64,000 nt of DNA from assembly GCA_028281825.1 (NCBI GenBank), contig JANQJC010000009.1:8138-72137 (forward strand), in the 5' to 3' direction. Below the pieces are notes generated by a model. The model was not told the origin of the DNA, made no database searches, and saw only the letters and a program-made list of their open reading frames with translations. The DNA comes from Flavobacteriales bacterium. GTDB taxonomy: Bacteria; Bacteroidota; Bacteroidia; JANQJC01. Both the position numbers and the translations under genes were made by a program. This document shows, in pieces, positions 8,148 through 34,506 of this stretch; positions within the stretch are counted from its first letter, which is position 1, and the number at the start of each line of letters is the position of its first letter.

Positions 8148-8245
8148 AGTTTCGTCCCAAATGTATAGAAAATAGATACTTATTGCGGACAACGAGTCAT
8201 ACTATTACAAAATGCTTAGTAAATATATTAAGTTTAAGCGCCTGA

Positions 8246-15992: not shown

Positions 15993-16898
15993 CTACTTGG
16001 GTCCCAATAGTTTGAATCTAAGCTCTTGTAATAAGTATTCTGCTTTATCTGTAAATCCTTTAGTCTCTAATTCAAGCGCAAGCTTGGTAAATATACTTGG
16101 ATTCAACCCCCTCTTAAAAGTCCTTTTTAAAAAACCATCATCAGAATAGGGCAGCGCACCAGCCTTTAAATGAGGTTTAAGGAGTTTTACCAACTTGTTA
16201 AACTCATTTCTATTATGCCAATAGTAGTCCTTATCAAATTGCCCCATTACCTTCATGCCAATATGCACGGTAAGGTGTAGGTTATCAAAAAGTTTGAAGC
16301 TGCTGGCAAAGGCATAAAGGTTATGGGCAAAAGCAGCTTCAATAAAAGGAACTCCAACACAAATATTGCCTAATTCAAATTTGGGATATAGATTTCTATG
16401 AAATACAAAACAATCAAAACCTGGGTGCGACTTACCTATTTCAGCCCAAATAAGGGGTAGCTCATCTGGCTTACTGTATATTTTTGGGATTCGCCTACGA
16501 TTTATCATAAACGCATCATGGCCTTTATCAATAATTGAAGCTACTGCCGCATAAAAATTGGGTAAAACAGTGATGTCAACGTTGGTGTATATTAAATATT
16601 CAGCATCACTATTCTCATAAACTGTGCTGAGAATATCCTTGAGTAATGGCAATTTTCTCTCTTTTGAAAAAGAAGCAATATCTAAAACTGAATGCTTAAG
16701 GTTGGTTGTTTTGGTAAAGTACTCAGGTATAATGTCAAGGTCTTCTTCGTACTGGGTAGTGAAAAGCTCAACACTTGTATTTTTTGCTAACTCTTTAGCA
16801 ATCCTCATACTTTCGAAGGTGATGGGTTGTGCGACAAACAAGTCTGAAGACTCCTTAACCTTTACCGGGTTAACAATATGTGCTATTGAAACTGCCAC
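15993..16898 (-). CDS. Hypothetical protein (possible GT-A-like transferase) in glycan locus
   Basis: A 301-aa cytoplasmic-looking ORF is co-oriented and tightly spaced with the downstream glycosyltransferase-like gene. I recognised no firm motif. Confidence 0.35.
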   Translation of the reverse strand: MAVSIAHIVNPVKVKESSDLFVAQPITFESMRIAKELAKNTSVELFTTQYEEDLDIIPEYFTKTTNLKHSVLDIASFSKERKLPLLKDILSTVYENSDAEYLIYTNVDITVLPNFYAAVASIIDKGHDAFMINRRRIPKIYSKPDELPLIWAEIGKSHPGFDCFVFHRNLYPKFELGNICVGVPFIEAAFAHNLYAFASSFKLFDNLHLTVHIGMKVMGQFDKDYYWHNRNEFNKLVKLLKPHLKAGALPYSDDGFLKRTFKRGLNPSIFTKLALELETKGFTDKAEYLLQELRFKLLGPK

Positions 16899-16907
16899 TT
16901 TACTAAT

Positions 16908-17843
16908 TTAGTCGAACCAATTGAGATAAGACCAAAGTATTTGCCATTTCGCATTTCGATACTTGACCCAAAAGCCCTCATTTTTAAGTATTTTCTTGGT
17001 GTCTATCTTGAAACCATATTTTTCTAAAACAGCTATATAGTCGTGCAACTGAGCTTTTAATATAGGGTCTTCATCACGCAAAATAGCCGCAATGGTGCAA
17101 TCCGCATAATGAACAAAAACCAATGGATATTTTCCCTCAATCAATATTTTTCCATCTACATTCTCCCGTTTGACCTCCTTTATGTTCCAATATGCTACGT
17201 TACAACCCATGTGTGAAACTACCTTGGTTTTGGGTTCAATTACAGGCATCATGTCCAAGTATTTTTGGTCATCAAACATACCCTGAATGTAGCTTTTGGT
17301 ACATTTATAGATACATGCGTTAGCCCACCAATCCAGGGCAGCTTCAGCACCTTTAGAGACTCCAATAAATCCCGCATTATAGATTCCATCTCTAAAATTG
17401 GTCTCAAACCACAAAGGTTCCTTACTTGGGTTCGACGGTCTCCAGTGAGGAGTTAGTAAGATATGGTTGGTGCTTAGGTCATTCCACAAAAAATCAAAAG
17501 AGTCACTGAAGTAGATGTCGTTATCCACATATATGGCCTTTTCATACCCTCCTTCATTCAAAAGGTAGTTTAGAAAAATAGGTTTAAATGTCCATCTTAG
17601 TTTATCGGGATGTTTTCTATACTTGGCAGTTGCTTCCTTAGCAAATATTGAATTCAACTCGTCCAATGCGCGATACTTTACATTTAGAAAAGAAGTATCT
17701 AAATTTGATAACTCGGTAGCATCACTATCTACAACTAAGACTTCAAGTTCTGAGTCTTTATCAAACTTTAAAATTGAATCAAAAAGTGCATATACTTTCG
17801 GTAAATAACTCTTGGTAGATATGGTACAAATGGCGCGCTTCAT
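16908..17843 (-). CDS. Putative nucleotide-sugar glycosyltransferase (GT-A fold, DxD motif)
   Basis: The DxD motif (AIYVDNDIYF) sits in the context typical of GT-A transferases. There is no signal peptide. Confidence 0.45.
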   Translation of the reverse strand: MKRAICTISTKSYLPKVYALFDSILKFDKDSELEVLVVDSDATELSNLDTSFLNVKYRALDELNSIFAKEATAKYRKHPDKLRWTFKPIFLNYLLNEGGYEKAIYVDNDIYFSDSFDFLWNDLSTNHILLTPHWRPSNPSKEPLWFETNFRDGIYNAGFIGVSKGAEAALDWWANACIYKCTKSYIQGMFDDQKYLDMMPVIEPKTKVVSHMGCNVAYWNIKEVKRENVDGKILIEGKYPLVFVHYADCTIAAILRDEDPILKAQLHDYIAVLEKYGFKIDTKKILKNEGFWVKYRNAKWQILWSYLNWFD

Positions 17844-17890
17844 TGATATTAAAAGAAGGTGCTAAAATTAGGAAATTAAAAGTTGGTAAC

Positions 17891-18946
17891 TTATTGAGCC
17901 AATTCCTGCATTATCAATTCTCTACTAAAAAGATAATACTTATAATGGCCTAAATTGTTTAGATGTGCATCAGGATAATCATTAAACCAATTTTTTGTTG
18001 TTTGTGGTAATTCCAAATATGGCTTTAAGGTAGGTTCATCAAAAATTGCTGAATACTTGCTTCTATACTCTTCCACATCCATATCAGCCTCCTTTATCTC
18101 AGGTATTACAACGATTTTGAGTAGGGTATTATGGTTTTTACAAGTGGTCACAATTTGCTTTAAGTAGCCAATGGTTATTTCAGGTTTTTTAATTAATTGT
18201 TCATATTCGAGTTTTTCCTTTAACCTGAATTTTAAAGAATAAAGTCTGCTCAATAAGCTGCTTTTGGAAGTAATGGATTCAAGAATTCCAATAGGTTCTT
18301 TGAGGTAAAACTTTCTGGCTACTATATAATTATAAGCTTCTTGAGCAGTTTTAAAGTCATTGCCATCAATGTTGGTAAGAATGGCTCCTGCATTGGTGTA
18401 AAAATAAAATGGTTTATTTGGCTTAGGTTCCCTATCTCGTTTCATTAGGTCGTTTCCCATAAAGAAATAAACCAACACTTGTTTTGGTTGCAATTTGGGG
18501 ATATAAGTTTCTGCAAGCAATGAATATTGTGGTGGGTCGGCTGCAGGAATGCCTAGATTAATAACCTGGAATGTTGAATCATTCCCCAATCTGTCGGCAA
18601 AGCAACTATCAATAGGCTCTGCTGTCATCCCCCAAACAAAACTATCACCAATGAGCATCGTTCCACCCTTTACTGATGATGAATCAAGTTCAGAAGTTCT
18701 AAAACCGTCAGTATTAATGCGCTCTGGTTGATATCTATAATAATCCTGATTTGCTACTAAAATTCCCTTATCGTTCACGACAAAATCATTGTATATAATG
18801 AGACTATCAACAGGCTCAAAATTAATCCAGTTTGGACTTATATCTCCAGGTTGATATCCAATAAACCTAAGGGTTGCTTCAATGATACCCATTAAGACCA
18901 GTAGTATGGCCAATTGTATCAATAGTATTTTGAGAAGTTTCTTCAA
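17891..18946 (-). CDS. Membrane-anchored SGNH-hydrolase-like protein (AlgJ/AlgX-like, possible glycan O-acyl transferase/esterase)
   Basis: There is an N-terminal transmembrane anchor. The GDS block is LIGDSFVWG. The C-terminal D-x-H block is DYPDAHLNNLGH. Confidence 0.5.
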   Translation of the reverse strand: MKKLLKILLIQLAILLVLMGIIEATLRFIGYQPGDISPNWINFEPVDSLIIYNDFVVNDKGILVANQDYYRYQPERINTDGFRTSELDSSSVKGGTMLIGDSFVWGMTAEPIDSCFADRLGNDSTFQVINLGIPAADPPQYSLLAETYIPKLQPKQVLVYFFMGNDLMKRDREPKPNKPFYFYTNAGAILTNIDGNDFKTAQEAYNYIVARKFYLKEPIGILESITSKSSLLSRLYSLKFRLKEKLEYEQLIKKPEITIGYLKQIVTTCKNHNTLLKIVVIPEIKEADMDVEEYRSKYSAIFDEPTLKPYLELPQTTKNWFNDYPDAHLNNLGHYKYYLFSRELIMQELAQ

Positions 18947-20003
18947 CAGTGTCTAATTGAAGGAGCTCAGGATATTTATTATTAATTTCTTCAAAAATAC
19001 ATTTTGCCATGATATGATAACCTTTCCCATTAAAATGTCCATCAATTGGCCATGCATATGAGTCGATATTATCTGGATTTAGATATTTACTCATTGGCTC
19101 GTGAAGTACTAAATGAGGCGTGTTGTTTGGTTCAAGGTAAGGAACAACTTTTCTTATATCATCTTGAGTATTGAAGTCATAGCGATGCTCATCTGGAAAC
19201 GCATGTAGTGCAGCTACAAAATCAATATTTCGTGCTTTGGATAGGCTGTCAAAACGAACGATGCATTGAGCAATCTTTTCGATAGCAACCTCTGTTTCCT
19301 TGTTTTTTTGACCTGGAGAAAGCAAAGCATCATCATAGCCAAATGAATGCATAATAGCCCTGCAAACATGGCTGTACTTATAAGGGATAAGCAATAAAGG
19401 TGCTTTTTTAAAAGCTGTTGTTCCATCGTTGAGAAACCGTTCAAAGCCACCACACAACATTACGTCATTAATATCAGAAGAATTAATAATGAGCAACACT
19501 ATATCTATATCAAATTCCTTTAATATGTCTTTAAAAAGTTGGTAGCAGAAAAATACATCACTACCAGCTATACCGGCGTTCCAAACTTCGTATTGGGTTT
19601 TGGGGTTAACATTTAATAAGTTTGATAGCTGTGCGGATATAACGCTATCATTAGTTGTTCCGAAACCTTCTGTAAAAGAATCCCCTATTGTTAAAATCCT
19701 AAGGGAATTAGCCTTTTTTTTCTTGTGAAATTCGGTACCCCTAAATCCCATAGAATTTGCAATAAATTCATACTTAAACTCTTTAAAGTCTCTTGTTACA
19801 ACTTGGCCTGGATTCCATCTATGATAATGTGTAGGATGAGTTTTTCCATAGTATGAATAGAAATACCCGTAAGCGTTCTCGGAATAGGTTAGATAAGTTC
19901 CTTTAAATCTCAAGTATATCTCGTAGGCTAAAACTGGTAAGAATGGAATAAGTATTAAAGCTAATGAGAAGAAATAATACCTAAACTTTTCTTTCAAGAC
20001 CAT
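18879..20003 (-). CDS. Membrane-anchored SGNH-hydrolase-like protein, paralog of the downstream gene
   Basis: It has the same architecture as its neighbour: an N-terminal transmembrane segment, LTIGDSFTEGFG, and a C-terminal DGHFNGKGYH. Its end overlaps the neighbour's start by 68 nt. Confidence 0.5.
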   Translation of the reverse strand: MVLKEKFRYYFFSLALILIPFLPVLAYEIYLRFKGTYLTYSENAYGYFYSYYGKTHPTHYHRWNPGQVVTRDFKEFKYEFIANSMGFRGTEFHKKKKANSLRILTIGDSFTEGFGTTNDSVISAQLSNLLNVNPKTQYEVWNAGIAGSDVFFCYQLFKDILKEFDIDIVLLIINSSDINDVMLCGGFERFLNDGTTAFKKAPLLLIPYKYSHVCRAIMHSFGYDDALLSPGQKNKETEVAIEKIAQCIVRFDSLSKARNIDFVAALHAFPDEHRYDFNTQDDIRKVVPYLEPNNTPHLVLHEPMSKYLNPDNIDSYAWPIDGHFNGKGYHIMAKCIFEEINNKYPELLQLDTVEETSQNTIDTIGHTTGLNGYH

Positions 20004-20020
20004 CAGCGATTATAAAGTTT

Positions 20021-21457
20021 TTAATCTTTAATGCTGTAAAAGTTCTTTGCTTTTTCTTTAAGCTCAGACATGTCTTGGGTTTCTATCGAAATCAGGAACT
20101 CTTCAATGGCCATATCATTGCTTAAATCTACTCTTGAGTATATATCTCCAGATTTGAACTCCCCAGGCATTTCACTATCTAGCAATGTTAATTTCTCAAG
20201 CAGCAATTTAGTTCTTGCTAAATCGAACTTTTCCAAAAAGTATTCCTCCTTGAGCTTATTCTTAATCAAACCTTTAAAGTCATGAAAGGAGTTTATGCTA
20301 ACTAAACTCTCATTGATGGTTATCCAATTTTCAATTTGATTGATAATATCTTTAAAATGCCTTTTGTTTTTATTATGGACGTTGCTTTCTTCAGGAAGAC
20401 TAGGTAAGATAGGTCTTAAATAATCTAGAATTTCCTTTAGCTCACTTGGTTTTAAGGTTCTAATTGCTAAATTCAATGGGTAAAACACCGTATGAAAATA
20501 AACCTGTATATCCCTTTCATTACAAAATGATATCATGTCAGGTATTTCCTTCCAGTTATTTCTCATGGCACAAGCAGAAATACCAATAAAGGTGTTCTTC
20601 TCACGACAGTAATTGATATACCACTTAACGTTTTCCATCACCCTTTCAAATTTGGCATTCACCCTTATACTTTCATAGGTTTCTTTTTGGAGAGAGTCTA
20701 ATGAAATATTGATGTGGAAATTAGTCTTATTAAGAATGCTTTTTACGCGATTGTTAAGTATAGTAGCGTTCGTCTGAACTTGAATCCTGACGTTTGGATT
20801 AATCTCCATAATTAACTCCCAAATCTTATAGTAAGTTTCTATAAGAAAAGGTTCTCCACCATAAAATTTTACATCTTCCAAGTAAGGAATAAACTCTTTT
20901 AATTGTTCGATGAATGTATTGTCATAAGGACTTACTAGCGGTTCTCTTTTTTCACGATTTGCCCTTATTAATGAAGAAAAATCACCATTGCACATAGTAC
21001 ACTCAAGGTTGCATAAATTCTCCAATTCAAATTCCATAACCGATGGATATCCGTTAGGGTTTTGTCTATGCAAGTCATATTGTTTGGATTTTACAGCATC
21101 AAAGTTTTCAGCGACCAAGTGAGCGAGGCAACCTTTGCAACCGTATGAAAAGTCATAGTTCGCTAAGGCATCTCGTAATTTTTTTGTGTTTTCGCCAAAC
21201 CAGATTTCCTTAATTGATTCTTCTGGATATGTTCCTAAAATGAATTGTCTATTGTAGCAGCATACCGCCAATCTTCCATGATGACCAAAATAAATACTCC
21301 TATATGGAGCATAACATGCACTGGAATTATTAAATTGTTTTCTCCGACTGTTATACTCTATTGTGAGTTCCTCGGTAATCCCATCACTTGCTTTCGATAG
21401 ATTTGGGATTTTTTTTTCAGAGAAAAAGTTGCTTAGAGTTCTTAAAAATTTGTTCAT
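20021..21457 (-). CDS. Radical SAM enzyme with N-terminal SPASM-like Cys-rich domain (copy A)
   Basis: The CxxxCxxC motif is CNLECTMC, followed by the glycine-rich SAM motif FYGGEPF. About 90 aa upstream of the core is a C-x12-G-x4-CC motif (CYAPYRSIYFGHHGRLAVCC) and a CKGC pair. Confidence 0.75.
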   Translation of the reverse strand: MNKFLRTLSNFFSEKKIPNLSKASDGITEELTIEYNSRRKQFNNSSACYAPYRSIYFGHHGRLAVCCYNRQFILGTYPEESIKEIWFGENTKKLRDALANYDFSYGCKGCLAHLVAENFDAVKSKQYDLHRQNPNGYPSVMEFELENLCNLECTMCNGDFSSLIRANREKREPLVSPYDNTFIEQLKEFIPYLEDVKFYGGEPFLIETYYKIWELIMEINPNVRIQVQTNATILNNRVKSILNKTNFHINISLDSLQKETYESIRVNAKFERVMENVKWYINYCREKNTFIGISACAMRNNWKEIPDMISFCNERDIQVYFHTVFYPLNLAIRTLKPSELKEILDYLRPILPSLPEESNVHNKNKRHFKDIINQIENWITINESLVSINSFHDFKGLIKNKLKEEYFLEKFDLARTKLLLEKLTLLDSEMPGEFKSGDIYSRVDLSNDMAIEEFLISIETQDMSELKEKAKNFYSIKD

Positions 21458-21497
21458 TATTTAAAATGCAACATGATTTATCCCAATCATAATAGAA

Positions 21498-22895
21498 TTA
21501 TAGGTTTTCGAGATCTTTTTTCTCGAGAGAAATAATATAATCCTCAACTAAAAAATCGTTGCTAAGGTCAACCTTTGATATATGACCAGTATAACTATAA
21601 TTGTCTGGAAGTCGTTCATGAATAAAGCCCATTTTCTTAATAATGGAGTCAGCTCTCTCGGAAGAAAATTTCCGAAGAAAATAAGGTTCACTTAGCTTGT
21701 TTTCTATAAATGACTTAATAGCCTCAAATGAATTCAAATTAGCCTTGGTTTCCTTTATCCTCGCCCAATCATTAATTTGGTTTATGACATCGCCTAAATG
21801 TTTTTTGTTCTTTTTTTCTAAACTGCTTATCTCTGGAAGGTCTGAAATGATTTCATTGTAAGTTTTTCTGATGAGATTTAAGTTCTCAAGTTCTAAATCT
21901 CTTATTGATAGTTCAAGAGGGTAAAAGACAGTGTGGAAATAAACCTGAACACTTTTCTCATTGCAGAATTTGACCATTTCGGGTAATTCTTCCCAGTTAT
22001 TCCTCATTGCGCATGCTGAAATACCTATAAAAGTTTCTTTTTCATGACAATAATCTATGAACCATTTTATATTTTCTATAACCCTTTCAAATTTTCCATT
22101 AATTCGAATGCTTTCATATGTTTCTTTATTAAGGGAGTCCAGTGAAATATTGATATGGAAATTGGTTTTATTGAGAATGTTCTTAACTCGATTATTGAGG
22201 ATGGTAGCATTGGTTTGAACCGAAATTCTGACATTGGGATTAACTTCCATAATTAACTCCCAAATCTTGTAATAGATCTCGATTAAGAACGGTTCACCAC
22301 CGTAAAACTTTACTTCCTCAAGATGTGGGATAAACTCTTTTAATTGTTCAATAAATGCAGCGTCATAAGGAATGTCAAGTGGTTCTCTTTTTTCACGATT
22401 AGCCCTTATCAGTGAAGAAAAATCACCATTGCACATAATGCACTCCAAGTTGCATAAGTTCTCCAATTCAAATTCCATCACTGATGGATACTTGTTTCTA
22501 TTGAGCTTTTGTAAGTCATACTGCTGGGCTTTTGTAGCATCAAAATTGCTAGCGGCCAACTGCATTAAACATCCATCACAACCATTTGAGAAGTCATATT
22601 TTGTGAGAGCATCTCGTAATTTGTTAGCATTTTCTCCAAACCAAATATCTTTGATTGACTGTTCTGGATAAGTGCCTAAAGTATATTGCCGGGTATAGCA
22701 GCAAACGGATAACCTTCCATGATGTCCAAAGTAGATGCTCTTAAAAGGTGCATAGCAAGCCACTTTTTGCGGACCTTTTGGACGACTATTATTATACTCT
22801 TTAACTAACTCTGGGGTGATTCCGCCGCTGGCTTGAGACAGGTCGGGAACTATCTCTTTCCTAAATAGATTGCTTACCTTGTCCAAAAACTCCAT
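21498..22895 (-). CDS. Radical SAM enzyme with N-terminal SPASM-like Cys-rich domain (copy B, tandem paralog)
   Basis: It carries CNLECIMC, FYGGEPF and the same N-terminal C-x12-G-x4-CC plus CDGC. It is collinear with copy A, with clear nucleotide-level similarity across the core. Confidence 0.75.
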   Translation of the reverse strand: MEFLDKVSNLFRKEIVPDLSQASGGITPELVKEYNNSRPKGPQKVACYAPFKSIYFGHHGRLSVCCYTRQYTLGTYPEQSIKDIWFGENANKLRDALTKYDFSNGCDGCLMQLAASNFDATKAQQYDLQKLNRNKYPSVMEFELENLCNLECIMCNGDFSSLIRANREKREPLDIPYDAAFIEQLKEFIPHLEEVKFYGGEPFLIEIYYKIWELIMEVNPNVRISVQTNATILNNRVKNILNKTNFHINISLDSLNKETYESIRINGKFERVIENIKWFIDYCHEKETFIGISACAMRNNWEELPEMVKFCNEKSVQVYFHTVFYPLELSIRDLELENLNLIRKTYNEIISDLPEISSLEKKNKKHLGDVINQINDWARIKETKANLNSFEAIKSFIENKLSEPYFLRKFSSERADSIIKKMGFIHERLPDNYSYTGHISKVDLSNDFLVEDYIISLEKKDLENL

Positions 22896-22951
22896 CTCGC
22901 AACTTTACTAAGTTTTCTATAAAGATAGCATTTGTAAGTGAAACATAGATT

Positions 22952-24733
22952 TTAAACCCACCTTTGCCACCAATTTTCCATCACGGCTATTTTCCATAAA
23001 CGCCAGTGGGCCTTTTCATTAATAAGCTTGTTTATATACTCCTTGTTTAAAACTTGTTCTGACAGAAGTTTACCTGGTAGAATAATGTTCTTATACCACT
23101 CGATATCCATATAATAACTGTCAGGTCCTACAAATCCTTGCTTTTTTCTTTCTAATATCTTCTTGGGAAGCTTGTTTTTTATGTTCTCATGAAGAAGGAA
23201 CTTGGTCACATTAGGTTTGAAATAGACGCTTTCTTTAAAAGTAAAGACTTTTTCAAACAATTCATGATCAAGAAAGGGTACTCTGACTTCAAGTGAATGA
23301 GCCATACTAGCCCTGTCTATCTTGGTAAGAACCAACTCTCCCATAAAGCATTTGATGTCCATTTTTTGAATGGACTTTAATGGGCTAAGACTTCCATTGT
23401 AATGTTGTCTATAAAACCAGTCAGTATCAGAGTTAATTTCTGACCTTAAATCAGGATTTAAGGCACCAGATAACTCGTTTAGGTTAAACCTGCCCATAGC
23501 CATATACTCGGCATATTCATCAACCGCCGAATTTCGCCGGTTACAGAATAGATTTTTTAACTTGCCTGGCAAACTTGAAGGGTTCCATTGAGCATAGTAT
23601 GTTTTTTGCCACTCATAGCCTCCAAATAATTCATCCGCACCTTCACCACTCATCACTGCTTTCACCTCGCTTGCTGCTAATCCGCTTACAATGTAAGTTG
23701 GGATAATAGAGATATCCGCAATTGGTTCGTCATAAATGGTGCTTAACTTACCAAGTACATCCAAGCTTTCACTACCAACAATTTTCGAAAAATGCTCAGT
23801 TTTTAATTGCTCTGAAACTATTTCTGCAAACTGATGTTCACTATTATCCCAATTTTCAAAACCTATTGAAAAGGTTTTTAGGTTTTGCTTCTGTTGCGAC
23901 AAGTAATAAACAATTGCACTGCTATCATAGCCCCCACTCAAAAATGAACCAATTTCGACATCACTTCTGGAATGTATATTGATCGAATCAGCCAGCATCC
24001 CACCAATTTCCTCTGCTAGTTGATTTGAGTTAGTACTTAAATCAGTACTATTAAGTGTCCAATATTCAGATATATTGGTGCTTTTAGATTGCAAATCAAC
24101 TTTAAGGTAATGAGCGGGGGGAAGTTTATAGGTGTCTTTCCAAATGGTTTTGGGTGATGGGATATACCTGTAAACGAAATAGTCTGCAAATGAGCTAAAG
24201 TCAATTTCTTTGGCTGGAATCCCTGATTTGAGAATAGCTTTTAATTCACTTGCAAAAATGAAATGACTCCCTTTCTTAAAGTAGTAAAGAGGCTTAATGC
24301 CAAATCGGTCTCTGACTAAATATAACTTGTGATTAGCTTCATCCAGCATAGCAAAGGCGAACATCCCTTTTATCTTTTGTAACAAGTCATCAACCCCCCA
24401 TTGTTCAAATCCATGCAGTAGAACTTCCGTATCTGAAGTGGATTTGAAAGTGTGCCCTAATGCAACCAACTCAGTTCTTAACTCCGAATAGTTGTATATT
24501 TCCCCATTCAAGATTACCCATAATGTTCCATTCTCATTGCACATGGGTTGTCTACCAGATTCTGATAAGTCGAGAAATGAAAGCCTTCTATGACCCAGTA
24601 TTACATTGGTTTTTTCTGAATAATAATTGGCAGCATCATCAGGTCCGCGGTGGGCAATAGTATCACGCATCTTAGTAAAAAGATGTTCATCGATATTATC
24701 TTGATAACTAACCCAACCTGCTATGCCACACAT
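22952..24733 (-). CDS. Asparagine synthetase (glutamine-hydrolysing) family amidotransferase, AsnB-like
   Basis: The Ntn nucleophile is MCGIAGW. The start was moved to the Met preceding Cys, because the ORF-track start 29 codons upstream is a likely artefact. The glutaminase domain is followed by the PP-loop SGGYDSS, and a long C-terminal domain is present. Confidence 0.85.
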   Translation of the reverse strand: MCGIAGWVSYQDNIDEHLFTKMRDTIAHRGPDDAANYYSEKTNVILGHRRLSFLDLSESGRQPMCNENGTLWVILNGEIYNYSELRTELVALGHTFKSTSDTEVLLHGFEQWGVDDLLQKIKGMFAFAMLDEANHKLYLVRDRFGIKPLYYFKKGSHFIFASELKAILKSGIPAKEIDFSSFADYFVYRYIPSPKTIWKDTYKLPPAHYLKVDLQSKSTNISEYWTLNSTDLSTNSNQLAEEIGGMLADSINIHSRSDVEIGSFLSGGYDSSAIVYYLSQQKQNLKTFSIGFENWDNSEHQFAEIVSEQLKTEHFSKIVGSESLDVLGKLSTIYDEPIADISIIPTYIVSGLAASEVKAVMSGEGADELFGGYEWQKTYYAQWNPSSLPGKLKNLFCNRRNSAVDEYAEYMAMGRFNLNELSGALNPDLRSEINSDTDWFYRQHYNGSLSPLKSIQKMDIKCFMGELVLTKIDRASMAHSLEVRVPFLDHELFEKVFTFKESVYFKPNVTKFLLHENIKNKLPKKILERKKQGFVGPDSYYMDIEWYKNIILPGKLLSEQVLNKEYINKLINEKAHWRLWKIAVMENWWQRWV

Positions 24734-24789
24734 ATGATGCAATCTGGATGTTGAGAAAATGGGTGGAAGTTCAAAGTAGAGGTGCTTTT

Positions 24790-24797
24790 GGTATGGA
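24790..24797 (-). promoter_or_regulatory. Candidate Bacteroidota sigma-A -7 box (TATATTTG on minus strand) for the asnB / radical-SAM / SGNH / GT operon
   Basis: It matches TAnnTTTG and lies about 55 nt upstream of the MCGIAG start. Confidence 0.25.
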
Positions 24798-24882
24798 ACA
24801 AATATAAGCACACAATACATATTGACAATTAATGATATTAGATGCCCGTGTTATGGTATTGTTTCATTGTTCATGAAATTGG

Positions 24883-24890
24883 TACTTTTG
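24883..24890 (+). promoter_or_regulatory. Candidate Bacteroidota sigma-A -7 box (TACTTTTG) for the wzm-led 14-gene operon
   Basis: It matches TAnnTTTG and lies 31 nt upstream of the ATG at 24922, in the divergent intergenic region. Confidence 0.3.
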
Positions 24891-24921
24891 CTTTATTCCA
24901 CTTAGTGAGCAGACATTTTTA

Positions 24922-25734
24922 ATGAAGAGGATAATTACCAGTGAACCAGATAGCTTAATCCAATACTTGAAGAAGATTTGGGAGTATCGTTCTTTGGTAA
25001 TGGTATTTGCCAGGCGTGATTTAAAAGTTAAATACGCACAAACCTTGCTTGGATTGGGTTGGACCATCATTCAACCACTCACAGGCCTTTTCATTTTCAC
25101 TTTTTTCTTTGGGTATATTTTAAACTTGAATGCCCAGAGTTTGCCTTTTCCACTTTATGTGCTTTCAGGGTTATTGGGTTGGAACTACTTCAGTTATATT
25201 GTTTTTCAGGGTATAGGCGGCGTTCAGGAATCAGGGCATTTCATAAGAAAGGTATACTTCCCTAAGTCTTTATTGCCTTTGTCAAAAGTATTGGTAGGCT
25301 TGGTTGAGTTATCAGTCAGTTTTCTATTACTTATCCCTTTATTGATGTGGTACGGTGAAGGTCTTTCATGGAGGATAATTTTTATACCTGTATTGCTATT
25401 ATTTAACACATTGATTGCCTTATTTGTAGTATTTTTGGTTACTTCTTTTTCCTATCGATTAAGGGACTTATACCACTTGGTGCCGTTTGTCATGTACTTC
25501 GGTATATGGATAACTCCAGTTTTTTTTACTATAGATGTGCTACCAGAGCAACTTCACTTTCTTTGGTTTTTAAATCCCATGGCTTCAGTTGTTGAAGGGT
25601 GGCGATGGTGCCTCTTTAGTGATTGGGCTTTTAACATTAGATTTTTACCAGCATTACTATGTATTATACCAGCCTTCTTGTTCAGTGTGGTATTGTACAG
25701 TAAAGCTGAAAGTAAATTCAGTGATTTTGCATGA
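24922..25734 (+). CDS. ABC-2 type polysaccharide/glycoconjugate export permease (Wzm/TagG-like)
   Basis: It has six predicted transmembrane helices. The N-terminal cytoplasmic stretch (YRSLVMVFARRDLKVKYAQTLLG) is typical of ABC-2 permeases. It overlaps the downstream ATPase by 4 nt. Confidence 0.7.
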   Translation: MKRIITSEPDSLIQYLKKIWEYRSLVMVFARRDLKVKYAQTLLGLGWTIIQPLTGLFIFTFFFGYILNLNAQSLPFPLYVLSGLLGWNYFSYIVFQGIGGVQESGHFIRKVYFPKSLLPLSKVLVGLVELSVSFLLLIPLLMWYGEGLSWRIIFIPVLLLFNTLIALFVVFLVTSFSYRLRDLYHLVPFVMYFGIWITPVFFTIDVLPEQLHFLWFLNPMASVVEGWRWCLFSDWAFNIRFLPALLCIIPAFLFSVVLYSKAESKFSDFA

Positions 25735-26897
25735 GTAGTGGACCTGCCATAAAAGTTGAGAATATCTCAAAAAAGTTTACTCTTCAGCGTTCAATTGAAG
25801 ATGTTGAGGGCAATTATACCAACACGCTGTGGGCATTGAGAGATGTCTCTTTCGAAATAAAAAAAGGCGAAAGTGTAGCTCTCATAGGCCCTAATGGTAG
25901 TGGAAAAAGTACATTACTGCAGATATTGGCAGGAGTGACCAAGCCTACATCAGGAAGAGTGGAGATAGACGGAAAAGTAGCCAGCATTCTGGATATAGGG
26001 GCTGGCTTTCACCCCGAGTTAAGCGGCAGAGAGAATGTTTTCCTGAATGGACAGATATTAGGATTTACCAAAAAAGAGATACAGGCTAAGTACGATGAAA
26101 TAGTTGAATTTAGTGGGGTTAGGAACTTTATAGATGAGCCGGGGAAGAATTACAGCAAAGGGATGTATTTGCGTCTTGCCTTTAGTATTATGGCTCACCT
26201 TGATTTTGACGTTTACCTTCTGGATGAAGTACTTGGTGTGGGGGATGTAGGCTTTCGCTCAAAGTGTTTTGATAAGATTGAGCGGTTGATAGCAGAAGGA
26301 GGAAAGTCATTCTTGATAATTTCTCACGACTTAAATGAAATATCTGAGATATGTGATAAGGCATTTTTGTTGGAGGAGGGAAAAGTGTCAGACAGTATGA
26401 CTATAAACGAAGCATTATATACTTATACCAACACGGGGGAAAAACTGGTACAGGAATTGCCTGACTTTATTGATGATGTGACTGTTGAGTTCACAGGTGA
26501 AGATGGCAGGGTAAAGACGAACTTTATTAATACTGAGCCTGTGACTATATGCGTGAACAACTCATTTAATGAGAGCGGTAACAATGTTCGTGTTGGTATC
26601 AGGCTCACGGATAAACTAAATAATGTGGTGTTTAATGCTAGCCCAGTTTTGTCAAGAGAAGGAATTAAGGAAGTTGACTTTCAGGGAAAGAAACAAATAC
26701 TAGTCACTATACCTCCTAATTTGCTTAATGCAGGTTTCTTTTCCATAGATGTGGTTTACTTTGATGAAAACAAGGTACTATATGAGTTGAAAAAGGTAAG
26801 CACCTTTACGGTGAGTTTGGATATGACCTTTAAGGGACGGGGCATAGTAGGCGAAAGCGGCCCGCTAAAGCCTTATTTGGATTGGGAAGTAAAATAG
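25731..26897 (+). CDS. ABC transporter ATP-binding protein (Wzt/TagH-like) with ~140-aa C-terminal extension
   Basis: Walker A is GPNGSGKST, the signature is YSKGMYLRLAF, and Walker B is VYLLDEV. Beyond residue ~245 there is an extra beta-rich domain, as in O-antigen Wzt carbohydrate-binding domains. Confidence 0.75.
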   Translation: MSSGPAIKVENISKKFTLQRSIEDVEGNYTNTLWALRDVSFEIKKGESVALIGPNGSGKSTLLQILAGVTKPTSGRVEIDGKVASILDIGAGFHPELSGRENVFLNGQILGFTKKEIQAKYDEIVEFSGVRNFIDEPGKNYSKGMYLRLAFSIMAHLDFDVYLLDEVLGVGDVGFRSKCFDKIERLIAEGGKSFLIISHDLNEISEICDKAFLLEEGKVSDSMTINEALYTYTNTGEKLVQELPDFIDDVTVEFTGEDGRVKTNFINTEPVTICVNNSFNESGNNVRVGIRLTDKLNNVVFNASPVLSREGIKEVDFQGKKQILVTIPPNLLNAGFFSIDVVYFDENKVLYELKKVSTFTVSLDMTFKGRGIVGESGPLKPYLDWEVK

Positions 26898-26904
26898 TCA
26901 TGAA

Positions 26905-28241: not shown

Positions 28242-29174
28242 ATGGAGGCTCAGCAAACATATATGGAAGATACCGACTTGTACGTATTGCAACCGGACAG
28301 TATGGATATTTTCCAAAAAGGAGATCCTGATTGGTCAAGGCAATTGAAATACCTGGGCTATACTAAGATAGGTAAGTTGCCACAAGAGGTCTTAGAGGAG
28401 TTGAAAGAGAAATCAGAAACACTTGTTAAAGAGACTAAGAAAAGATACCCTAAAGGGGAGCTGTTTAATCTTATCAATTGTGATTATGACGTAAAAATGG
28501 CTTCTAATGAGATGGTGGATAATTACTTTAACCCGTTTCTCAAAGATATTATAGACACCAATAAGGCGGATGTTTATGCTGTTTCACATTTGGTGAAACC
28601 ATTTGGCCTTAAGAGCGACATTTGGCATCAGGATTCAGCGATTGTGGATGAGCGGGTTGCCTTTTCTTTAAATGCCTGGACACCGTTGGTTAACTCCACC
28701 AAACTAAATGGATGTTTATGGGTTTTTCCTGGAAGTCATATCAATACCAATCTTAATCGCCAGTTTGGGTATAATCCAGTTGAGAAGGATTTGTTGAAAT
28801 CACTTCAGAAGTATATGATACCCGTATATGTAGAAGCGGGTGAGGTATTGCTTTTTCATAGAAGTATTATTCATGGTTCATCAAGAAACTGGTTGCCATA
28901 TTCTCGTTTAGCGGTTGAAAGCGTGGTAGTTTCTAAAGATGTACAGTTTTATAATTTCCATAGGGAAGAAGCATGGTCTAAAGATAAAGTCTATGGTTTT
29001 CAAGTGGATATGGAACACTTTATGAAGCCAGATCCCAAAGAAGATTTCTACAAGGGGACTTATCCAAAGATAGAGTTTGATGACCCTGGTTTTGAAGGAA
29101 TAGCTGAGAACTTACTGAGCCATGTAGCCGAGTATCAAGCCTACGCCAAAAAGTACTACGATGGGGATGCTTGA
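28242..29174 (+). CDS. Phytanoyl-CoA dioxygenase (PhyH)-family Fe(II)/2-oxoglutarate oxygenase
   Basis: The HxD motif is WHQDSA, followed by a distal His (IIHGSSRN). The arrangement is PhyH-like. Confidence 0.6.
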   Translation: MEAQQTYMEDTDLYVLQPDSMDIFQKGDPDWSRQLKYLGYTKIGKLPQEVLEELKEKSETLVKETKKRYPKGELFNLINCDYDVKMASNEMVDNYFNPFLKDIIDTNKADVYAVSHLVKPFGLKSDIWHQDSAIVDERVAFSLNAWTPLVNSTKLNGCLWVFPGSHINTNLNRQFGYNPVEKDLLKSLQKYMIPVYVEAGEVLLFHRSIIHGSSRNWLPYSRLAVESVVVSKDVQFYNFHREEAWSKDKVYGFQVDMEHFMKPDPKEDFYKGTYPKIEFDDPGFEGIAENLLSHVAEYQAYAKKYYDGDA

Positions 29175-29826
29175 AAAAATGCTGGAAAAGAAAAACCAGC
29201 AGGTGAGAAGGCCTTATGGCTATGAAACTCCTCAATGCGTCAAAGAATTTCATGAGAACATAGATGCTATCATTGAAGAATGGAAGAATTATGTGGCTTC
29301 AAGTTCATCTAACGGGACACCAATTGATGAGCTATCATCTGCCCAAGGATACTTGAATGAAGACAAGAAGTGGAAGGCTTTTTTTGTACATATCTATGGG
29401 GAAACTCCTGTAAAAGCTACCAAGTATTTTCCTGTTACGGCCAGGTTAGCCGATAAATGGAAAGATGAAGTAAAATTGGTGTTTTTCTCCAATTTAGAGC
29501 CAGGCAAACATATCCAGCCGCACAAGGGAAACAATCATGGGGTTATCAGGTCACAGATAGGCATTGATATTGGTCAACCCGAAACAACAGGCGTGAGAGT
29601 GGAAGACAAAACCTTTCACATCAAAAACAAAGAATATTTTACGTTTGACGACACTTTTGAGCACGAGGCTTGGAATCGCGGAAGTGGGGACAGGACGGTG
29701 CTTATCATTGATAGCTGCAAGAATTTTTCTTATTTTTATAGCATTATCAACAAGTATTTGCTGAGCAAGATGAAAGACACAGAATACGTTCAGTCCACAC
29801 TTGAGAAATTGAAGAAGACAAATTAA
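29161..29826 (+). CDS. Aspartyl/asparaginyl beta-hydroxylase-family (LpxO-like) oxygenase
   Basis: The family motif LEPGKHIQPHKGNN...FDDTFEHEAWN is present. Confidence 0.65.
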   Translation: MGMLEKMLEKKNQQVRRPYGYETPQCVKEFHENIDAIIEEWKNYVASSSSNGTPIDELSSAQGYLNEDKKWKAFFVHIYGETPVKATKYFPVTARLADKWKDEVKLVFFSNLEPGKHIQPHKGNNHGVIRSQIGIDIGQPETTGVRVEDKTFHIKNKEYFTFDDTFEHEAWNRGSGDRTVLIIDSCKNFSYFYSIINKYLLSKMKDTEYVQSTLEKLKKTN

Positions 29827-29836
29827 GGTTAATACT

Positions 29837-30442: not shown

Positions 30443-30443
30443 G

Positions 30444-31220
30444 ATGGAATTCTTTTCAGTATGTGAAACCGGAACGGGTCAAGGCGATTTTAAGTTGCTA
30501 TTTGAGAACACTAAAGTGGTGCATGTAAAACACGACTTTCAGCAGGAGTCTATCCCTGATTTTTATAAAGGCCTGGCCAAAACAGTAGGTATTCCCCTTA
30601 TTTATGAGGAAGACCCCGTAACTGGGCAAGTTCATGTTAACAAGTGGACGGAGATTAAGTATGATGCTGATAAAGCCACTGATACCTACAAGCATAGTAA
30701 CAAATCTCAGCCCTTGCATACGGATTATGGTTATTTCTCCTTTGAGATATATTCTGCTTTTTTCTACTGCTCGGCACAAGCCCGATTTGGTGGAGCCACC
30801 ACTTTTATAGATGTAGATAAATTGGTGGAAATCCTAGATTGGGAAAACAAGGAATTACTCAATCAATTGCAGGAAAGGAAGATACAGTTCGGTAGACAAG
30901 GCAATCCCATTGCCCATAATGAGGATTATATTTTGCAGCAAGATAGTGTAGGTTGGAAGATGAACTGGAACTATTATCGCGCCAAAGGAGATACCCAGAA
31001 TCAGGATTTAGTAGAAAACTTTTTTGCTTTTATGAATGATATTGTGGAGAAGAGTGGTGAGTTGACAGAGTTGAAACTACAACCCAACGAAGCAGTATTT
31101 TTTCACGATAGGCGAGTATTACATGGAAGAAATTCGTTTATTGGGGAGCGTCAACTTAATAAGGGTGGAATAGCCAAAGAGTTGCCGCAATCAGTACTTC
31201 AATTATTAGAACTTGCTTAA
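30444..31220 (+). CDS. TauD/TfdA-family (clavaminate-synthase-like) Fe(II)/2OG dioxygenase
   Basis: The HxD motif is LHTDYGYF, a GGATTF block is present, and the distal HxR is VLHGRN. Confidence 0.5.
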   Translation: MEFFSVCETGTGQGDFKLLFENTKVVHVKHDFQQESIPDFYKGLAKTVGIPLIYEEDPVTGQVHVNKWTEIKYDADKATDTYKHSNKSQPLHTDYGYFSFEIYSAFFYCSAQARFGGATTFIDVDKLVEILDWENKELLNQLQERKIQFGRQGNPIAHNEDYILQQDSVGWKMNWNYYRAKGDTQNQDLVENFFAFMNDIVEKSGELTELKLQPNEAVFFHDRRVLHGRNSFIGERQLNKGGIAKELPQSVLQLLELA

Positions 31221-32140: not shown

Positions 32141-32917
32141 ATGAAGCCAGCCAAGAGTATCCCCCGCATATCACCTATACATAAGACTAAATTTTTCAAA
32201 GAATATGTTTCTCTGGCTAAGCCTGTAATTATTGAAGGTTTGGTAGATGAGTGGCCCGCTTTTGGCAAATGGAGTATGCAGTATTTTGCAGAAAGGTATG
32301 CTAAGGTGGCTCCTGTTACTGTTAAGGTCAAGGATGGGAAACACGATTTTGACTTGGAGCATGGCACTGGCATATTCAACAAGCCTATGGAAGAGACGCT
32401 CAAAAAAATAATGGCTGGAAATGTTAGCGAGGGATATGCCATAGGCACTACTGATGAAGTCTTTCCGCAGGAGCTAAGAGACGATTACCCCACCCCAGGG
32501 TATTGTGCTGATGGTAAGTATTTAAGAGCGCGTATTTTTATTGGGGCAAAAGGCACTATTACCGAAACCCATCAAGACTTGTTCGAGAACCTTTATACTG
32601 TAGTCAAAGGTTCAAAGCGTATTTACCTTTTTGAGCCAAAGGATAGTATATACCCTAACTCCCGTTTCTCAAAGCTGCCCAACTTTGCGCGGACTGACCC
32701 CGAGAATCCCGATTATGAAAACTATCCAAAAATGCGGAATGCCCAACCATATGTTGTAGATTTGAAGGCTGGTGAGACCCTCTTTTTACCAAGCCTGTGG
32801 TGGCATTACGTTAAGAACCAAGAGGAAAGTATAGCTGTGAGTTATTGGTGGGCATATGGATGGAAACTACCTTTGGTGTGGGCCGCAGTGCAGTATAAAA
32901 AGTTCAGGGGTATCTAG
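32141..32917 (+). CDS. JmjC/cupin-8 domain oxygenase
   Basis: The HxD motif is THQDLFEN within a double-stranded beta-helix context. The distal His lies in SLWWHYVKN, which is typical of cupin-8/JmjC hydroxylases. Confidence 0.55.
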   Translation: MKPAKSIPRISPIHKTKFFKEYVSLAKPVIIEGLVDEWPAFGKWSMQYFAERYAKVAPVTVKVKDGKHDFDLEHGTGIFNKPMEETLKKIMAGNVSEGYAIGTTDEVFPQELRDDYPTPGYCADGKYLRARIFIGAKGTITETHQDLFENLYTVVKGSKRIYLFEPKDSIYPNSRFSKLPNFARTDPENPDYENYPKMRNAQPYVVDLKAGETLFLPSLWWHYVKNQEESIAVSYWWAYGWKLPLVWAAVQYKKFRGI

Positions 32918-32952: not shown

Positions 32953-34506
32953 ATGGGTAAGAAGCTATTATATAGAATCTTATTGACTGCAATTGTTGTA
33001 GTCACTTCCGTATTTCATAATGACTCATTGAGATATGGCCTTTCTACCGATGGACCTGATGTGTGGGAGTACCAGACGGTAGCCGTCAATTTTTCAGAAT
33101 ATGGGGAGTTTCCCACAATGGGCTTTATTGGAGACGAGCCTTGCTACCAAACTAATATACTTGAAGGCAATACCCTCTCCAACTACATGAAATGTAGGTT
33201 TTCAACCCCTGGACCACTAGTCTATTTGGCGAAACCCCCTGCTTATCCCTTTATACTTGGTTTGGTTTACAAGATATTTGGAGCCAACCTCAAGTATGCC
33301 TACAACCTTAATTTATTATTTTTCATTGGAATCGTCTTTGTGTTGATAGGGATGGGGCAAACCATCAATAATGACTATGGGGTGCTACTTGGAGTATTAG
33401 CAGGGCTTCTATTTGGTACGCAAGTCTATCATAGCTTGTCGGATGTCCTTCCGGCTATCATGATGACTTTCTTTTTTGCCTGCATTGCATGGGTGGGGGT
33501 GTTGGTTGTAAAAACTCCAACACATAAGAAATTCTCCTTGATGGGTATTATGATTGGACTAGGCTTATTGACCAAAGGAGATATCAGTTTTATAGCCATA
33601 CTAATCCCTATTTGCTTAGCTTTCTTCTTATTCCGTATCGATAAGTTGATGACTAAAATGGTGATAATGTTCTTATCCGTTGCCCTCGTGTTACTGCCTT
33701 GGGTTATCTATGCTAACTATTTGAGGGTAAATACACAAACAGAAAGAGTGGAGTGGAAGCAGAAACTGTTAGAATCAGAGCAAGTGTGTGAATTGGATAC
33801 TTCCAAAAGAGAGGAGTGGGAGAATCGAGGCAGTATTATTGAAAACAAAGAGTATCATTCACTAGCAACTCACTTTTATTCAAGATACGCGATTGGAGAT
33901 AAAATGGTGATAATTTCCAATCAAGTTAATAAGGACGAATGGCTTTCAGTGCACAATGAATTTAGTACTGATGGGCATTGGCACCCAGAGTGGAGAGTAA
34001 GGGAAAGTGCCATTTACAATAATAAATATCAAGACAAACCTGTTTTGATGAAGGTCGTCTCATTCTATGCGGATAATCCAAGTCTCTTTTTCAAGATAGC
34101 TATGGCCAAGTTGGTAAGGGCGACAAGTAGTACCAACACCTTTTTGCTGCTTGCTGCATTTTTGTTTGGATGTTTGATGTGGATGTTGGGAATAGGAGTA
34201 GATAAGACGTTTTTAAATGTTATTTTTTTGTTGATTTCAGGGTTAGGATATTTAATATTACACCATCTCAATTTTCAACTTTTAATCGTTTATACCATTA
34301 TATTCTTTTTATCAGGATTATTATTGTTTAGAAGAAACATGATAAAAGACATTCCATTTATATTTCCATTGTTCATTCTAAATACCTTTTTAATCACATT
34401 TATTTTTTATGGAGACGCCAGGTTTGTATACGTGATTGAGCCAATTGCTATCTTTTCAGCCCTTTATTTCCTATCTTCGTTAGTTAAAAGTTTTTTTGAA
34501 CGCTAG
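32953..34506 (+). CDS. Polytopic membrane glycosyltransferase-like protein (GT-C fold, ArnT/PMT-like)
   Basis: N-terminal transmembrane helices are followed by AKPPAYPF in the first periplasmic loop, as in GT39/GT83 enzymes. A soluble middle domain and a C-terminal transmembrane bundle follow. Confidence 0.4.
   Translation: MGKKLLYRILLTAIVVVTSVFHNDSLRYGLSTDGPDVWEYQTVAVNFSEYGEFPTMGFIGDEPCYQTNILEGNTLSNYMKCRFSTPGPLVYLAKPPAYPFILGLVYKIFGANLKYAYNLNLLFFIGIVFVLIGMGQTINNDYGVLLGVLAGLLFGTQVYHSLSDVLPAIMMTFFFACIAWVGVLVVKTPTHKKFSLMGIMIGLGLLTKGDISFIAILIPICLAFFLFRIDKLMTKMVIMFLSVALVLLPWVIYANYLRVNTQTERVEWKQKLLESEQVCELDTSKREEWENRGSIIENKEYHSLATHFYSRYAIGDKMVIISNQVNKDEWLSVHNEFSTDGHWHPEWRVRESAIYNNKYQDKPVLMKVVSFYADNPSLFFKIAMAKLVRATSSTNTFLLLAAFLFGCLMWMLGIGVDKTFLNVIFLLISGLGYLILHHLNFQLLIVYTIIFFLSGLLLFRRNMIKDIPFIFPLFILNTFLITFIFYGDARFVYVIEPIAIFSALYFLSSLVKSFFER

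Follow-up and report, generated by a model that had tools for sequence, protein, structure and literature searches.

Two adjacent genes on the minus strand of a 64,000-nucleotide stretch of Flavobacteriales DNA (contig JANQJC010000009.1, positions 8,138 to 72,137; hereafter the window) encode paralogous radical S-adenosylmethionine (SAM) enzymes, referred to here as A and B. Both open reading frames (ORFs) lie where a sequence-only reading of the window had placed them. They belong to a minus-strand operon whose order is AsnB, B, A, two SGNH proteins, a GT8 glycosyltransferase and a protein of 301 amino acids (aa), and which is divergent from the genes of a Wzm/Wzt exporter. Coordinates are collected in Table 1.

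Table 1. The two radical-SAM genes, their domains and motifs, and neighbouring genes in the window.
Feature	Position	Strand	Remarks
Radical-SAM paralog A	20021..21457	-	478 aa; architecture as in B
A, twitch domain, residues 45-116	21110..21325	-	C48, C66, C67, C107, C110; from Pfam and cysteine inventory
A, radical-SAM cluster motif CNLECTMC	20990..21013	-	C149, C153, C156
Radical-SAM paralog B	21498..22895	-	465 aa; N-terminal twitch domain, radical-SAM core, cysteine-free C-terminal helical domain
B, twitch domain, residues 44-115	22551..22766	-	predicted auxiliary [4Fe-4S] ligands C47, C65, C106, C109; C66 an extra cysteine
B, radical-SAM cluster motif CNLECIMC	22431..22454	-	C148-x3-C152-x2-C155
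B, all-helical C-terminal domain, residues 331-465	21501..21905	-	cysteine-free, most divergent region
AsnB-type glutamine-hydrolysing amidotransferase	22952..24820	-	first gene of operon; Pfam Asn_synthase and GATase_7
SGNH/GDSL protein 1	18879..20003	-	Pfam Lipase_GDSL
SGNH/GDSL protein 2	17891..18946	-	Pfam Lipase_GDSL_2, E 3.6e-5, under gathering score; N-terminal membrane anchor seen in translation
GT8-family glycosyltransferase	16908..17843	-	Pfam Glyco_transf_8
301-aa protein	15993..16898	-	last gene of operon; neither Pfam nor NCBIfam match; recurs in 4 loci, ~50% identity
Wzm/Wzt exporter: ABC-2 permease Wzm; ATPase Wzt, with glycan-binding Wzt_C domain	24922..26897	+	Pfam ABC2_membrane; ABC_tran and Wzt_C
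PhyH-family Fe/2-oxoglutarate oxygenase	28242..29174	+	Pfam PhyH; weak TIGR04324 match ('sporadic carbohydrate cluster 2OG-Fe(II) oxygenase')
Asp/Arg beta-hydroxylase	29161..29826	+	oxygenase, plus-strand operon
TauD	30444..31220	+	oxygenase, plus-strand operon
Cupin_8/JmjC-like	32141..32917	+	oxygenase, plus-strand operon
PMT_2 (GT-C, GT39-like) membrane glycosyltransferase	32953..34506	+	Pfam PMT_2
Third radical-SAM gene	34534..35544	+	336 aa; lacks N-terminal twitch domain; weak match to PTO1314-family model
Class I SAM methyltransferase (CMAS-like)	35561..36409	+	Pfam
UbiA-family prenyltransferase	36400..37254	-	convergent; Pfam UbiA

A gap-free alignment of 464 aa gives 65% identity between A and B, and the peptides that the sequence-only reading quoted to illustrate their divergence are present as described (NLAIRTLKPSELKEIL in A, ELSIRDLELENLNLI in B). 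A scripted inventory places the cysteines of A at positions 48, 66, 67, 107 and 110, at 149, 153 and 156, and at 284, 296 and 312; each cysteine of B lies one position lower, and cysteine numbers below are those of B unless A is named. The first group forms the motif CYAP[YF][RK]SIYFGHHGRL[AS]VCC (C-x12-G-x4-CC) followed by C[KD]GC, and the second the radical-SAM cluster motif CNLEC[TI]MC, a CxxxCxxC close to residue 150 in both proteins. This is the pattern that had been reported; the distance given with it, ~90 residues, needs correction, as the first cysteine stands ~100 and the CC pair ~83 residues before CxxxCxxC. No cysteine follows position 312 of A or 311 of B, which leaves cysteine-free tails of 166 and 154 residues respectively and bears out the claim that the C-terminal 150 residues contain none.

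The N-terminal motif is a twitch domain, that is, a truncated SPASM domain with a single cluster. Four lines of evidence lead to this identification: Pfam, NCBIfam, a profile match to BtrN and the predicted fold. In Pfam, SPASM (PF13186, gathering score 21.5) matches A at residues 48-110 (E = 2.3e-7, 31.4 bits) and B at 47-109 (E = 4.4e-8, 33.7 bits), and Radical_SAM (PF04055, gathering score 29.5) follows at 148-293 in A and 147-310 in B (60.6 and 61.0 bits); in both proteins the order is SPASM, then Radical_SAM, and both domains exceed their gathering scores. In NCBIfam, both proteins score highest against NF033640 (N_Twi_rSAM, twitch domain-containing radical SAM protein), with 160.3 bits for A (E = 7e-47) and 167.1 bits for B (E = 6e-49), some 90 bits ahead of the next family (MoaA, ~68 bits). 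The match runs in one stretch over profile positions 2-363 and 2-372 of 398, and the model places the twitch domain ahead of the radical-SAM core, as in A and B.

When a profile of 33 family sequences was compared with all chains of the PDB, the best match was BtrN (E = 3.6e-7), a 2-deoxy-scyllo-inosamine dehydrogenase (PDB 4M7T/4M7S) and the archetypal twitch enzyme. The matching segments stand in swapped order: the C-terminal twitch segment of BtrN (163-238) is matched by query 37-108, and its N-terminal core (5-99) by query 133-232. The ligand cysteines, spaced C-x17-C … C-x2-C, are in register, those of 'sCMVP', 'LPC' and 'CKNC' in BtrN falling on C47, C65, C106 and C109. The auxiliary [4Fe-4S] cluster of BtrN is fully cysteine-ligated, by four residues, and has been proposed to accept an electron during a two-electron oxidation (PMC9012708). 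The same review defines SPASM and twitch domains as C-terminal extensions of the core (PMC9012708); in A and B, by contrast, the domain is N-terminal (~44-115). BtrN differs further in its size (~250 residues, deposited chains of 269-270 aa), in lacking a C-terminal helical domain and in its low identity (~20%). It acts on a carbohydrate-like substrate; of the traits that bear on its activity, the two-electron oxidation of a secondary alcohol, A and B share the cluster-ligand pattern and a carbohydrate gene context.

Modelled in isolation, the N-terminal domain (pLDDT, the predicted local distance difference test, 89.9) forms a hairpin followed by helices, the topology of a twitch domain. A Foldseek search with this domain alone returned BtrN as the two best PDB matches (probabilities 0.99 and 0.80), followed weakly by anSME. 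The comparison, made between models and structures, supports the other lines of evidence and is not decisive by itself.

Among 152 paralogs from 77 loci, C47, C65, C106 and C109, together with the core ligands C148, C152 and C155, are 100% conserved; the remaining cysteines are restricted to subfamilies (C66, 72%; C295, 68%; C311, 64%). At such frequencies C295 and C311 were both rejected as a universal hydrogen-atom donor for epimerisation. By analogy with BtrN, a single auxiliary [4Fe-4S] cluster, fully ligated by C47, C65, C106 and C109, is most likely bound in the N-terminal domain.

The sequence-only reading had spoken of a SPASM-like motif with the spacing of SPASM/twitch. The twitch part of that description holds and the full SPASM part does not. 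A and B have the Cx9-15Gx4C hairpin motif of the SPASM enzymes (anSME, PqqE, SuiB; PF13186/TIGR04085), but SPASM binds two auxiliary clusters by means of seven to eight cysteines, including CX2CX5CX3C, whereas here four are conserved (five are present in A and B). Because the CX2CX5CX3C signature is absent from both proteins – the N-terminal region holds five cysteines only, and the CxxC is not followed by x5-C-x3-C – a full SPASM domain of the TIGR04085 type was rejected in favour of a twitch domain. The wider claim, that an auxiliary-cluster motif of SPASM/twitch type precedes the radical-SAM core, agrees with the hidden Markov models (HMMs), the permuted BtrN match and the domain fold alike.

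The permuted order is therefore real; the proposal that it marks an unusual subfamily is overtaken by the fact that the family is large and already curated as NF033640. A and B belong to, or border on, that family and are ordinary members of it. All 33 aligned relatives likewise score best against NF033640, and its name is carried in RefSeq/GenBank by a Methylomagnum homolog (41% identical) and by a Chitinophagales homolog; most close relatives bear the plain name 'radical SAM protein'. Beyond the 398 positions of the model, A and B continue for ~75-90 residues in a C-terminal domain that is helical and variable.

Of the candidates scored in a word-indexed search, 756 were relatives; nearly all measure 450-520 aa and have SPASM ahead of Radical_SAM in their domain list. 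Most belong to metagenome-assembled genomes (MAGs) of Chitinophagales, Saprospiraceae and Flavobacteriales, and their name is usually 'radical SAM protein', once 'twitch domain-containing radical SAM protein'. A profile of the N-terminal domain (111 positions), searched against 1.84 billion representatives of clusters at 50% identity, gave 3751 matches (E <=1e-3), of which 858 reach E <=1e-10 and 69 reach E <=1e-30, and in 148 of the 150 best matches the domain begins within the first 63 residues. Judged by these profile matches, at least 858 clusters at 50% identity share the domain. A literature search on N-terminal twitch/SPASM radical-SAM architecture and on NF033640 found no paper describing any member.

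The remainder of each protein consists of the radical-SAM core and a C-terminal helical domain. In an AlphaFold2 model of B (pLDDT 88.7, predicted TM-score 0.80) the N-terminal hairpin and helices are followed by a lower-confidence linker of ~20 residues, a beta/alpha core and an all-helical C-terminal domain whose helices span ~336-459. The SAM motif G199-G200-E201-P202 (GGEP) is invariant in the family alignment. The best fold matches of the core are viperin, MoaA, BlsE and DesII (E = 4e-8 to 3e-5), with an aligned root-mean-square deviation as low as 3.8-4.3 Å for BlsE, MoaA and viperin and up to ~12 Å for one DesII chain; anSME, SuiB and GDGT-MAS are also among the matches. The four best matches, which act on nucleotide- or nucleoside-linked and on sugar substrates, fit a nucleotide- or sugar-linked substrate, but they align over the core only (query-normalised TM-score <=0.36, identity 13-19%) and possess neither an N-terminal auxiliary-cluster domain nor a C-terminal helical domain. 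The latter domain matched nothing in Pfam or the PDB. Identity between A and B is lowest there: 39% (39-40%), compared with 47% in the N-terminal leader, 74% in the twitch domain and 85% in the core. Since divergence is concentrated in the C-terminal domain both between A and B and across the family alignment, this domain is likely the specificity element of these enzymes and a candidate specificity determinant for the two paralogs.

Within the minus-strand operon the gaps between the first four genes are 56, 40 and 17 nucleotides (nt), and the two SGNH ORFs overlap. Counted from the TTG predicted as start codon of the second SGNH gene, its overlap with the end of the first amounts to 68 nt (18879-18946): either the true start lies downstream, or translation of the two genes is coupled. 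On the opposite strand an operon comprises Wzm, Wzt, PhyH, an Asp/Arg hydroxylase, a PglD-like acetyltransferase, TauD, a GT2 glycosyltransferase, Cupin_8, PMT_2, the third radical-SAM gene and the methyltransferase. Four families of non-heme-iron/cupin oxygenases in a single operon (28242-32917, plus strand) are unusually many for a glycan locus; the acetyltransferase and GT2 genes are interleaved with them. The G+C content is 33-38% over the glycan cluster (~16000-31000) and 40-43% in its flanks, which fits a surface-polysaccharide locus that is horizontally exchanged or fast-evolving.

The same company of genes recurs elsewhere. A scan of species-representative genomes yielded 402 relatives, from which 76 loci were kept. 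Nearly all of these are Bacteroidota MAGs; Acidobacteriota, Gemmatimonadota and Planctomycetota contribute a few. For a census without preconceived families, every ORF within ±10 kb was clustered, and each family was counted as the number of loci, out of 77, in which it occurs. N-terminal-twitch radical-SAM genes are present in 72 loci (157 genes). The most frequent annotated neighbour is AsnB (28 loci), often directly upstream of the radical-SAM gene; SGNH proteins of type 1 are equally widespread (28 loci, up to 5 copies), followed by UbiA-like proteins (26), a DXD glycosyltransferase (22), a CMAS-like methyltransferase (19), Wzt (18), GT8 (16), SGNH type 2 (16), a short-chain dehydrogenase/reductase (SDR; 16), PhyH (15 loci, 40 genes) and Wzm (13). 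The closest solved relatives of the SDR include MoeE5 and the UDP-glucuronate (UDP-GlcA) 4-epimerase of B. cereus. Sulfotransferases and B12-dependent radical-SAM genes also occur in related loci.

A family of ~404 aa (F01) was found in 43 of the 77 loci, often directly 3' of the twitch radical-SAM gene (for example at 7991-9205 of locus L066), and is absent from the window. Searches of Pfam, NCBIfam and PDB sequences with this family gave no match; by eye, DXD-like 'YLDTDV' and 'NGGVFLFN' motifs are reminiscent of GT-A glycosyltransferases.

The module extends to a cultured gammaproteobacterium. Plasmid pRS11DPr1 of Methylomagnum ishizawai (NZ_AP019784.1; locus L082, 17048-29810) carries, in order, a polyprenyl synthetase, a twitch radical-SAM gene, asnB, UbiA, a hypothetical protein of 1095 aa, an ATP-binding cassette (ABC) permease, an ABC ATPase, a methyltransferase and PhyH; the twitch radical-SAM protein is the 41%-identical homolog mentioned above. 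Close by are GT39, GT2 and GT4 genes and a sulfotransferase, with transposases alongside. The plasmid makes its host a possible genetic model for the family. The association of AsnB, ABC-2 exporter, glycosyltransferase, methyltransferase, PhyH and prenyltransferase is thus conserved across phyla, and it is indicative of a glycan or glycolipid that is exported.

From the architecture, homology, cysteine conservation and gene context documented above we infer cluster binding, substrate and type of reaction as follows. On balance, and with moderate confidence, we regard A and B as N-terminal-twitch radical-SAM enzymes that would tailor the precursor of a glycan or glycolipid by BtrN-like radical chemistry in a Wzm/Wzt-dependent pathway. 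Ahead of the core, a twitch domain of ~70 residues comprises a beta-hairpin enclosed between C47 and C65, followed by helices bearing C106-x2-C109; the ~20-residue linker connects it to a partial TIM-barrel core in which C148, C152 and C155 hold the SAM-cleaving cluster. This cluster would cleave SAM reductively, the 5'-deoxyadenosyl radical would take a hydrogen atom from the substrate, and the auxiliary cluster, by analogy with BtrN, would take the second electron as relay or acceptor. The predicted outcome is a two-electron oxidation of a sugar C-H/C-OH, with epimerisation and decarboxylation as alternatives, and the substrate would be a sugar unit, nucleotide-linked or lipid-linked. The role envisaged is the cytoplasmic tailoring of an ABC-transporter (Wzm/Wzt)-dependent surface glycan or of a polyprenyl-linked glycolipid, probably coupled to an AsnB-type amidotransferase that acts on a uronic-acid sugar, with the tandem paralogs perhaps modifying different residues or positions. 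An AsnB-type amidotransferase together with a UDP-GlcA-epimerase-like enzyme is the logic of uronamide sugars, as in moenomycin and some O-antigens, and by that analogy a uronic-acid-derived sugar is a reasonable candidate substrate.

Several points weigh against this interpretation. A and B fall a few bits under the curated NF033640 cutoff of 170, a threshold that their clade evidently straddles, to judge from the scores. Foldseek gives the small N-terminal domain weak E-values (0.08 and 0.6), even if the ranking is still BtrN-specific, and iron-sulfur binding by the N-terminal cysteines is a prediction. The type of reaction is argued by analogy. The adjacency of AsnB shows co-regulation, not a common substrate, and no UDP-GlcA epimerase homolog is present in the window. 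Lastly, UbiA, polyprenyl synthetase, PhyH and the CMAS-like methyltransferase fit a lipid substrate equally well.

This last point leads to the main rival, which keeps the architecture and exchanges the substrate: the radical-SAM enzymes, with PhyH and the CMAS-like methyltransferase, would decorate an isoprenoid chain made by UbiA and polyprenyl synthetase and exported by the ABC-2 transporter. We think it unlikely. UbiA-family genes occur both in the window and in 26 of 77 loci, polyprenyl synthetase, radical-SAM gene, asnB and UbiA follow one another in Methylomagnum, PhyH and CMAS-type methyltransferases classically act on lipids, and a lipid-modifying radical-SAM enzyme, GDGT-MAS, is among the fold matches. 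The commonest neighbours, however, are glycosyltransferases, AsnB, the UDP-GlcA-epimerase-like SDR and sulfotransferases; Wzt has a glycan-binding Wzt_C domain; the best fold matches of the core act on nucleotide- or sugar-linked substrates; and the PhyH protein weakly matches an oxygenase model named for a 'carbohydrate cluster'. In glycan loci, moreover, UbiA enzymes often make polyprenyl-phosphate sugar carriers, decaprenyl-phosphoribose synthase being an example.

Whether A and B differ in function is a separate matter, on which their paralogy bears. At least two copies of the N-terminal-twitch radical-SAM gene stand within 21 kb in 40 of the 76 loci; the largest arrays comprise 9 copies (L056, Bacteroidales MAG chromosome OY782882.1, 5716-19703) and 7 copies (L075, 7162-18399). 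Ten loci have a three-copy layout in common, in which positional orthologs are 57-66% identical and copies of the same locus ~34%. Because identity between orthologs of different genomes exceeds that within a locus, the three subtypes are ancient and have been maintained in parallel. Such parallel upkeep argues for distinct roles.

The pair in the window has a different history: at 65% identity, and as neighbouring leaves of the family's tree, A and B are younger than the ancient three-copy subtypes. One-to-one orthology with the tandem pair of two Chitinophagales loci (L002 and L006) was considered and rejected, as A and B are both nearer to the same copy (54-57% versus 49%); it follows that tandem duplication happened repeatedly. 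A lineage-specific duplication could have left A and B as redundant isozymes, or with one of them decaying. The two are, after all, adjacent leaves, their cores are 85% identical, and their overall identity is far above the ~34% that separates ancient subtypes elsewhere. We nevertheless find redundancy quite improbable, given that the two ORFs are intact and retain all conserved cluster ligands as well as the SAM motif, that the C-terminal domains have diverged to 39-40% identity, that tandem copies recur in more than half of the loci and are elsewhere kept as distinct orthologous groups, and that fused two-unit proteins exist. That A and B act on different positions or substrates, as the sequence-only reading had suggested, is plausible, and is backed indirectly by the divergence of the C-terminal domain and by the orthologous groups in other genomes.

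The fusions are two metagenomic proteins, P0130 (981 aa; L083, 1642-4587) and P0131 (969 aa), each with two full twitch-plus-core units. On Rosetta-stone reasoning they give a weak hint that neighbouring copies may cooperate. P0130 adjoins a further single-unit copy; both proteins are found on few contigs, and an assembly or gene-calling artefact is possible. Other families of these loci are also repeated. PhyH reaches 10 ORFs per locus in the ORF census, and tblastn shows tandem runs of ~6 in two loci (L042 and L078); SGNH proteins number up to 5 per locus (L030) and B12-dependent radical-SAM genes up to 5 in one locus. Paralog arrays are found at L045 and L052 as well.

A peptide substrate is the third possibility. 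A and B would then, like most SPASM/twitch enzymes that have been characterised, be maturases of a peptide made by the ribosome and modified after translation (RiPP), AsnB a cyclase of lasso or lactam type, and the Asp/Arg-hydroxylase and JmjC oxygenases would hydroxylate residues of the peptide. Many of the secondary NCBIfam matches are indeed peptide maturases (DynA, CbpB, WgkB, GggB), AsnB weakly matches a lasso cyclase model (219 bits, cutoff 525), and Asp/Arg hydroxylase and Cupin_8/JmjC genes are present in the neighbouring operon. But AsnB fails that cutoff and passes the asparagine-synthase model TIGR01536 (472 bits, cutoff 267), and the conserved neighbours are glycosyltransferases, Wzm/Wzt, a sugar epimerase and sulfotransferases. 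Pfam detects no RRE/PqqD domain in A or B, the operon, with gaps of 17-56 nt, no small ORF and all larger ORFs accounted for, leaves no room for a precursor gene, and a protease or leader-processing gene is absent. Because RRE domain, precursor gene and protease are all lacking, a role in RiPP maturation is very unlikely, and it was rejected.

That the N-terminal cysteines form a structural zinc site or disulfides instead of holding an iron-sulfur cluster, the twitch likeness being superficial, is highly improbable: four-cysteine motifs with a CxxC can bind zinc, and the E-values of the isolated domain are not significant alone, but SPASM exceeds its gathering score in both proteins, the curated family is named after the twitch domain, the BtrN profile match sets the four ligand cysteines in register, and these four are invariant in the 152 paralogs. 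The sequence-only reading had named a zinc ribbon, or another N-terminal domain unrelated to auxiliary clusters, as the finding that would speak against it; HMM and structure searches returned SPASM/twitch and BtrN, no zinc ribbon occurs among the Pfam and NCBIfam matches of A and B or in the fold search of the N-terminal domain, and a zinc ribbon was rejected on these grounds.

For the window itself the message is modest: A and B are two ordinary members of a catalogued family and not a new kind of enzyme. What the family does show is that an electron-relay module can stand on either side of a radical-SAM core. Of greater interest as a lead is the wider glycan/glycolipid module with its expanding arrays of twitch radical-SAM, PhyH and SGNH paralogs. 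It is tempting, if speculative, to suppose that the twitch radical-SAM genes mark an undescribed biosynthetic system of several phyla, with a core of radical-SAM enzyme, AsnB, UbiA, Wzm/Wzt, methyltransferase and PhyH that was enlarged by ancient paralog arrays; such a system might build a surface glycan or polyprenyl glycolipid tailored heavily by radical enzymes and oxygenases, using an unprecedented functionalisation of sugar or lipid C-H bonds. The enzymes might even be hetero-oligomeric, since the natural two-unit fusion proteins hint at this. Polysaccharide-type loci in combination with ancient paralog arrays make the family a good place to look for new radical chemistry on carbohydrates or glycolipids, and the loci are equally suited to the study of surface diversification in environmental Bacteroidota.

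Some minor observations complete the description of the window. A scan for promoters and terminators gave results close to those from shuffled sequence (39 versus 36 promoter-like and 4 versus 6 terminator-like sites), Bacteroidota promoter types being outside the scan. Apart from the glycan cluster the window is ordinary Bacteroidota chromosome, with proteins sorted by the type IX secretion system, UvrB and phosphoglucomutase. Adjoining the minus-strand operon downstream is a gene for a protein of 1777 aa (10516-15849, minus strand), whose translation contains ~20 PKD-like repeats with a recurring W.WDFGDG…P.H.Y motif, and a gliding-type C-terminal region. Further along, a fusion of ComA (phosphosulfolactate synthase) and rhodanese (49938-51110, minus strand) adjoins a VCA0040-like 'undecaprenyl phosphate translocase-like' protein (48929-49906); this region may relate to sulfonate or sulfonolipid metabolism.

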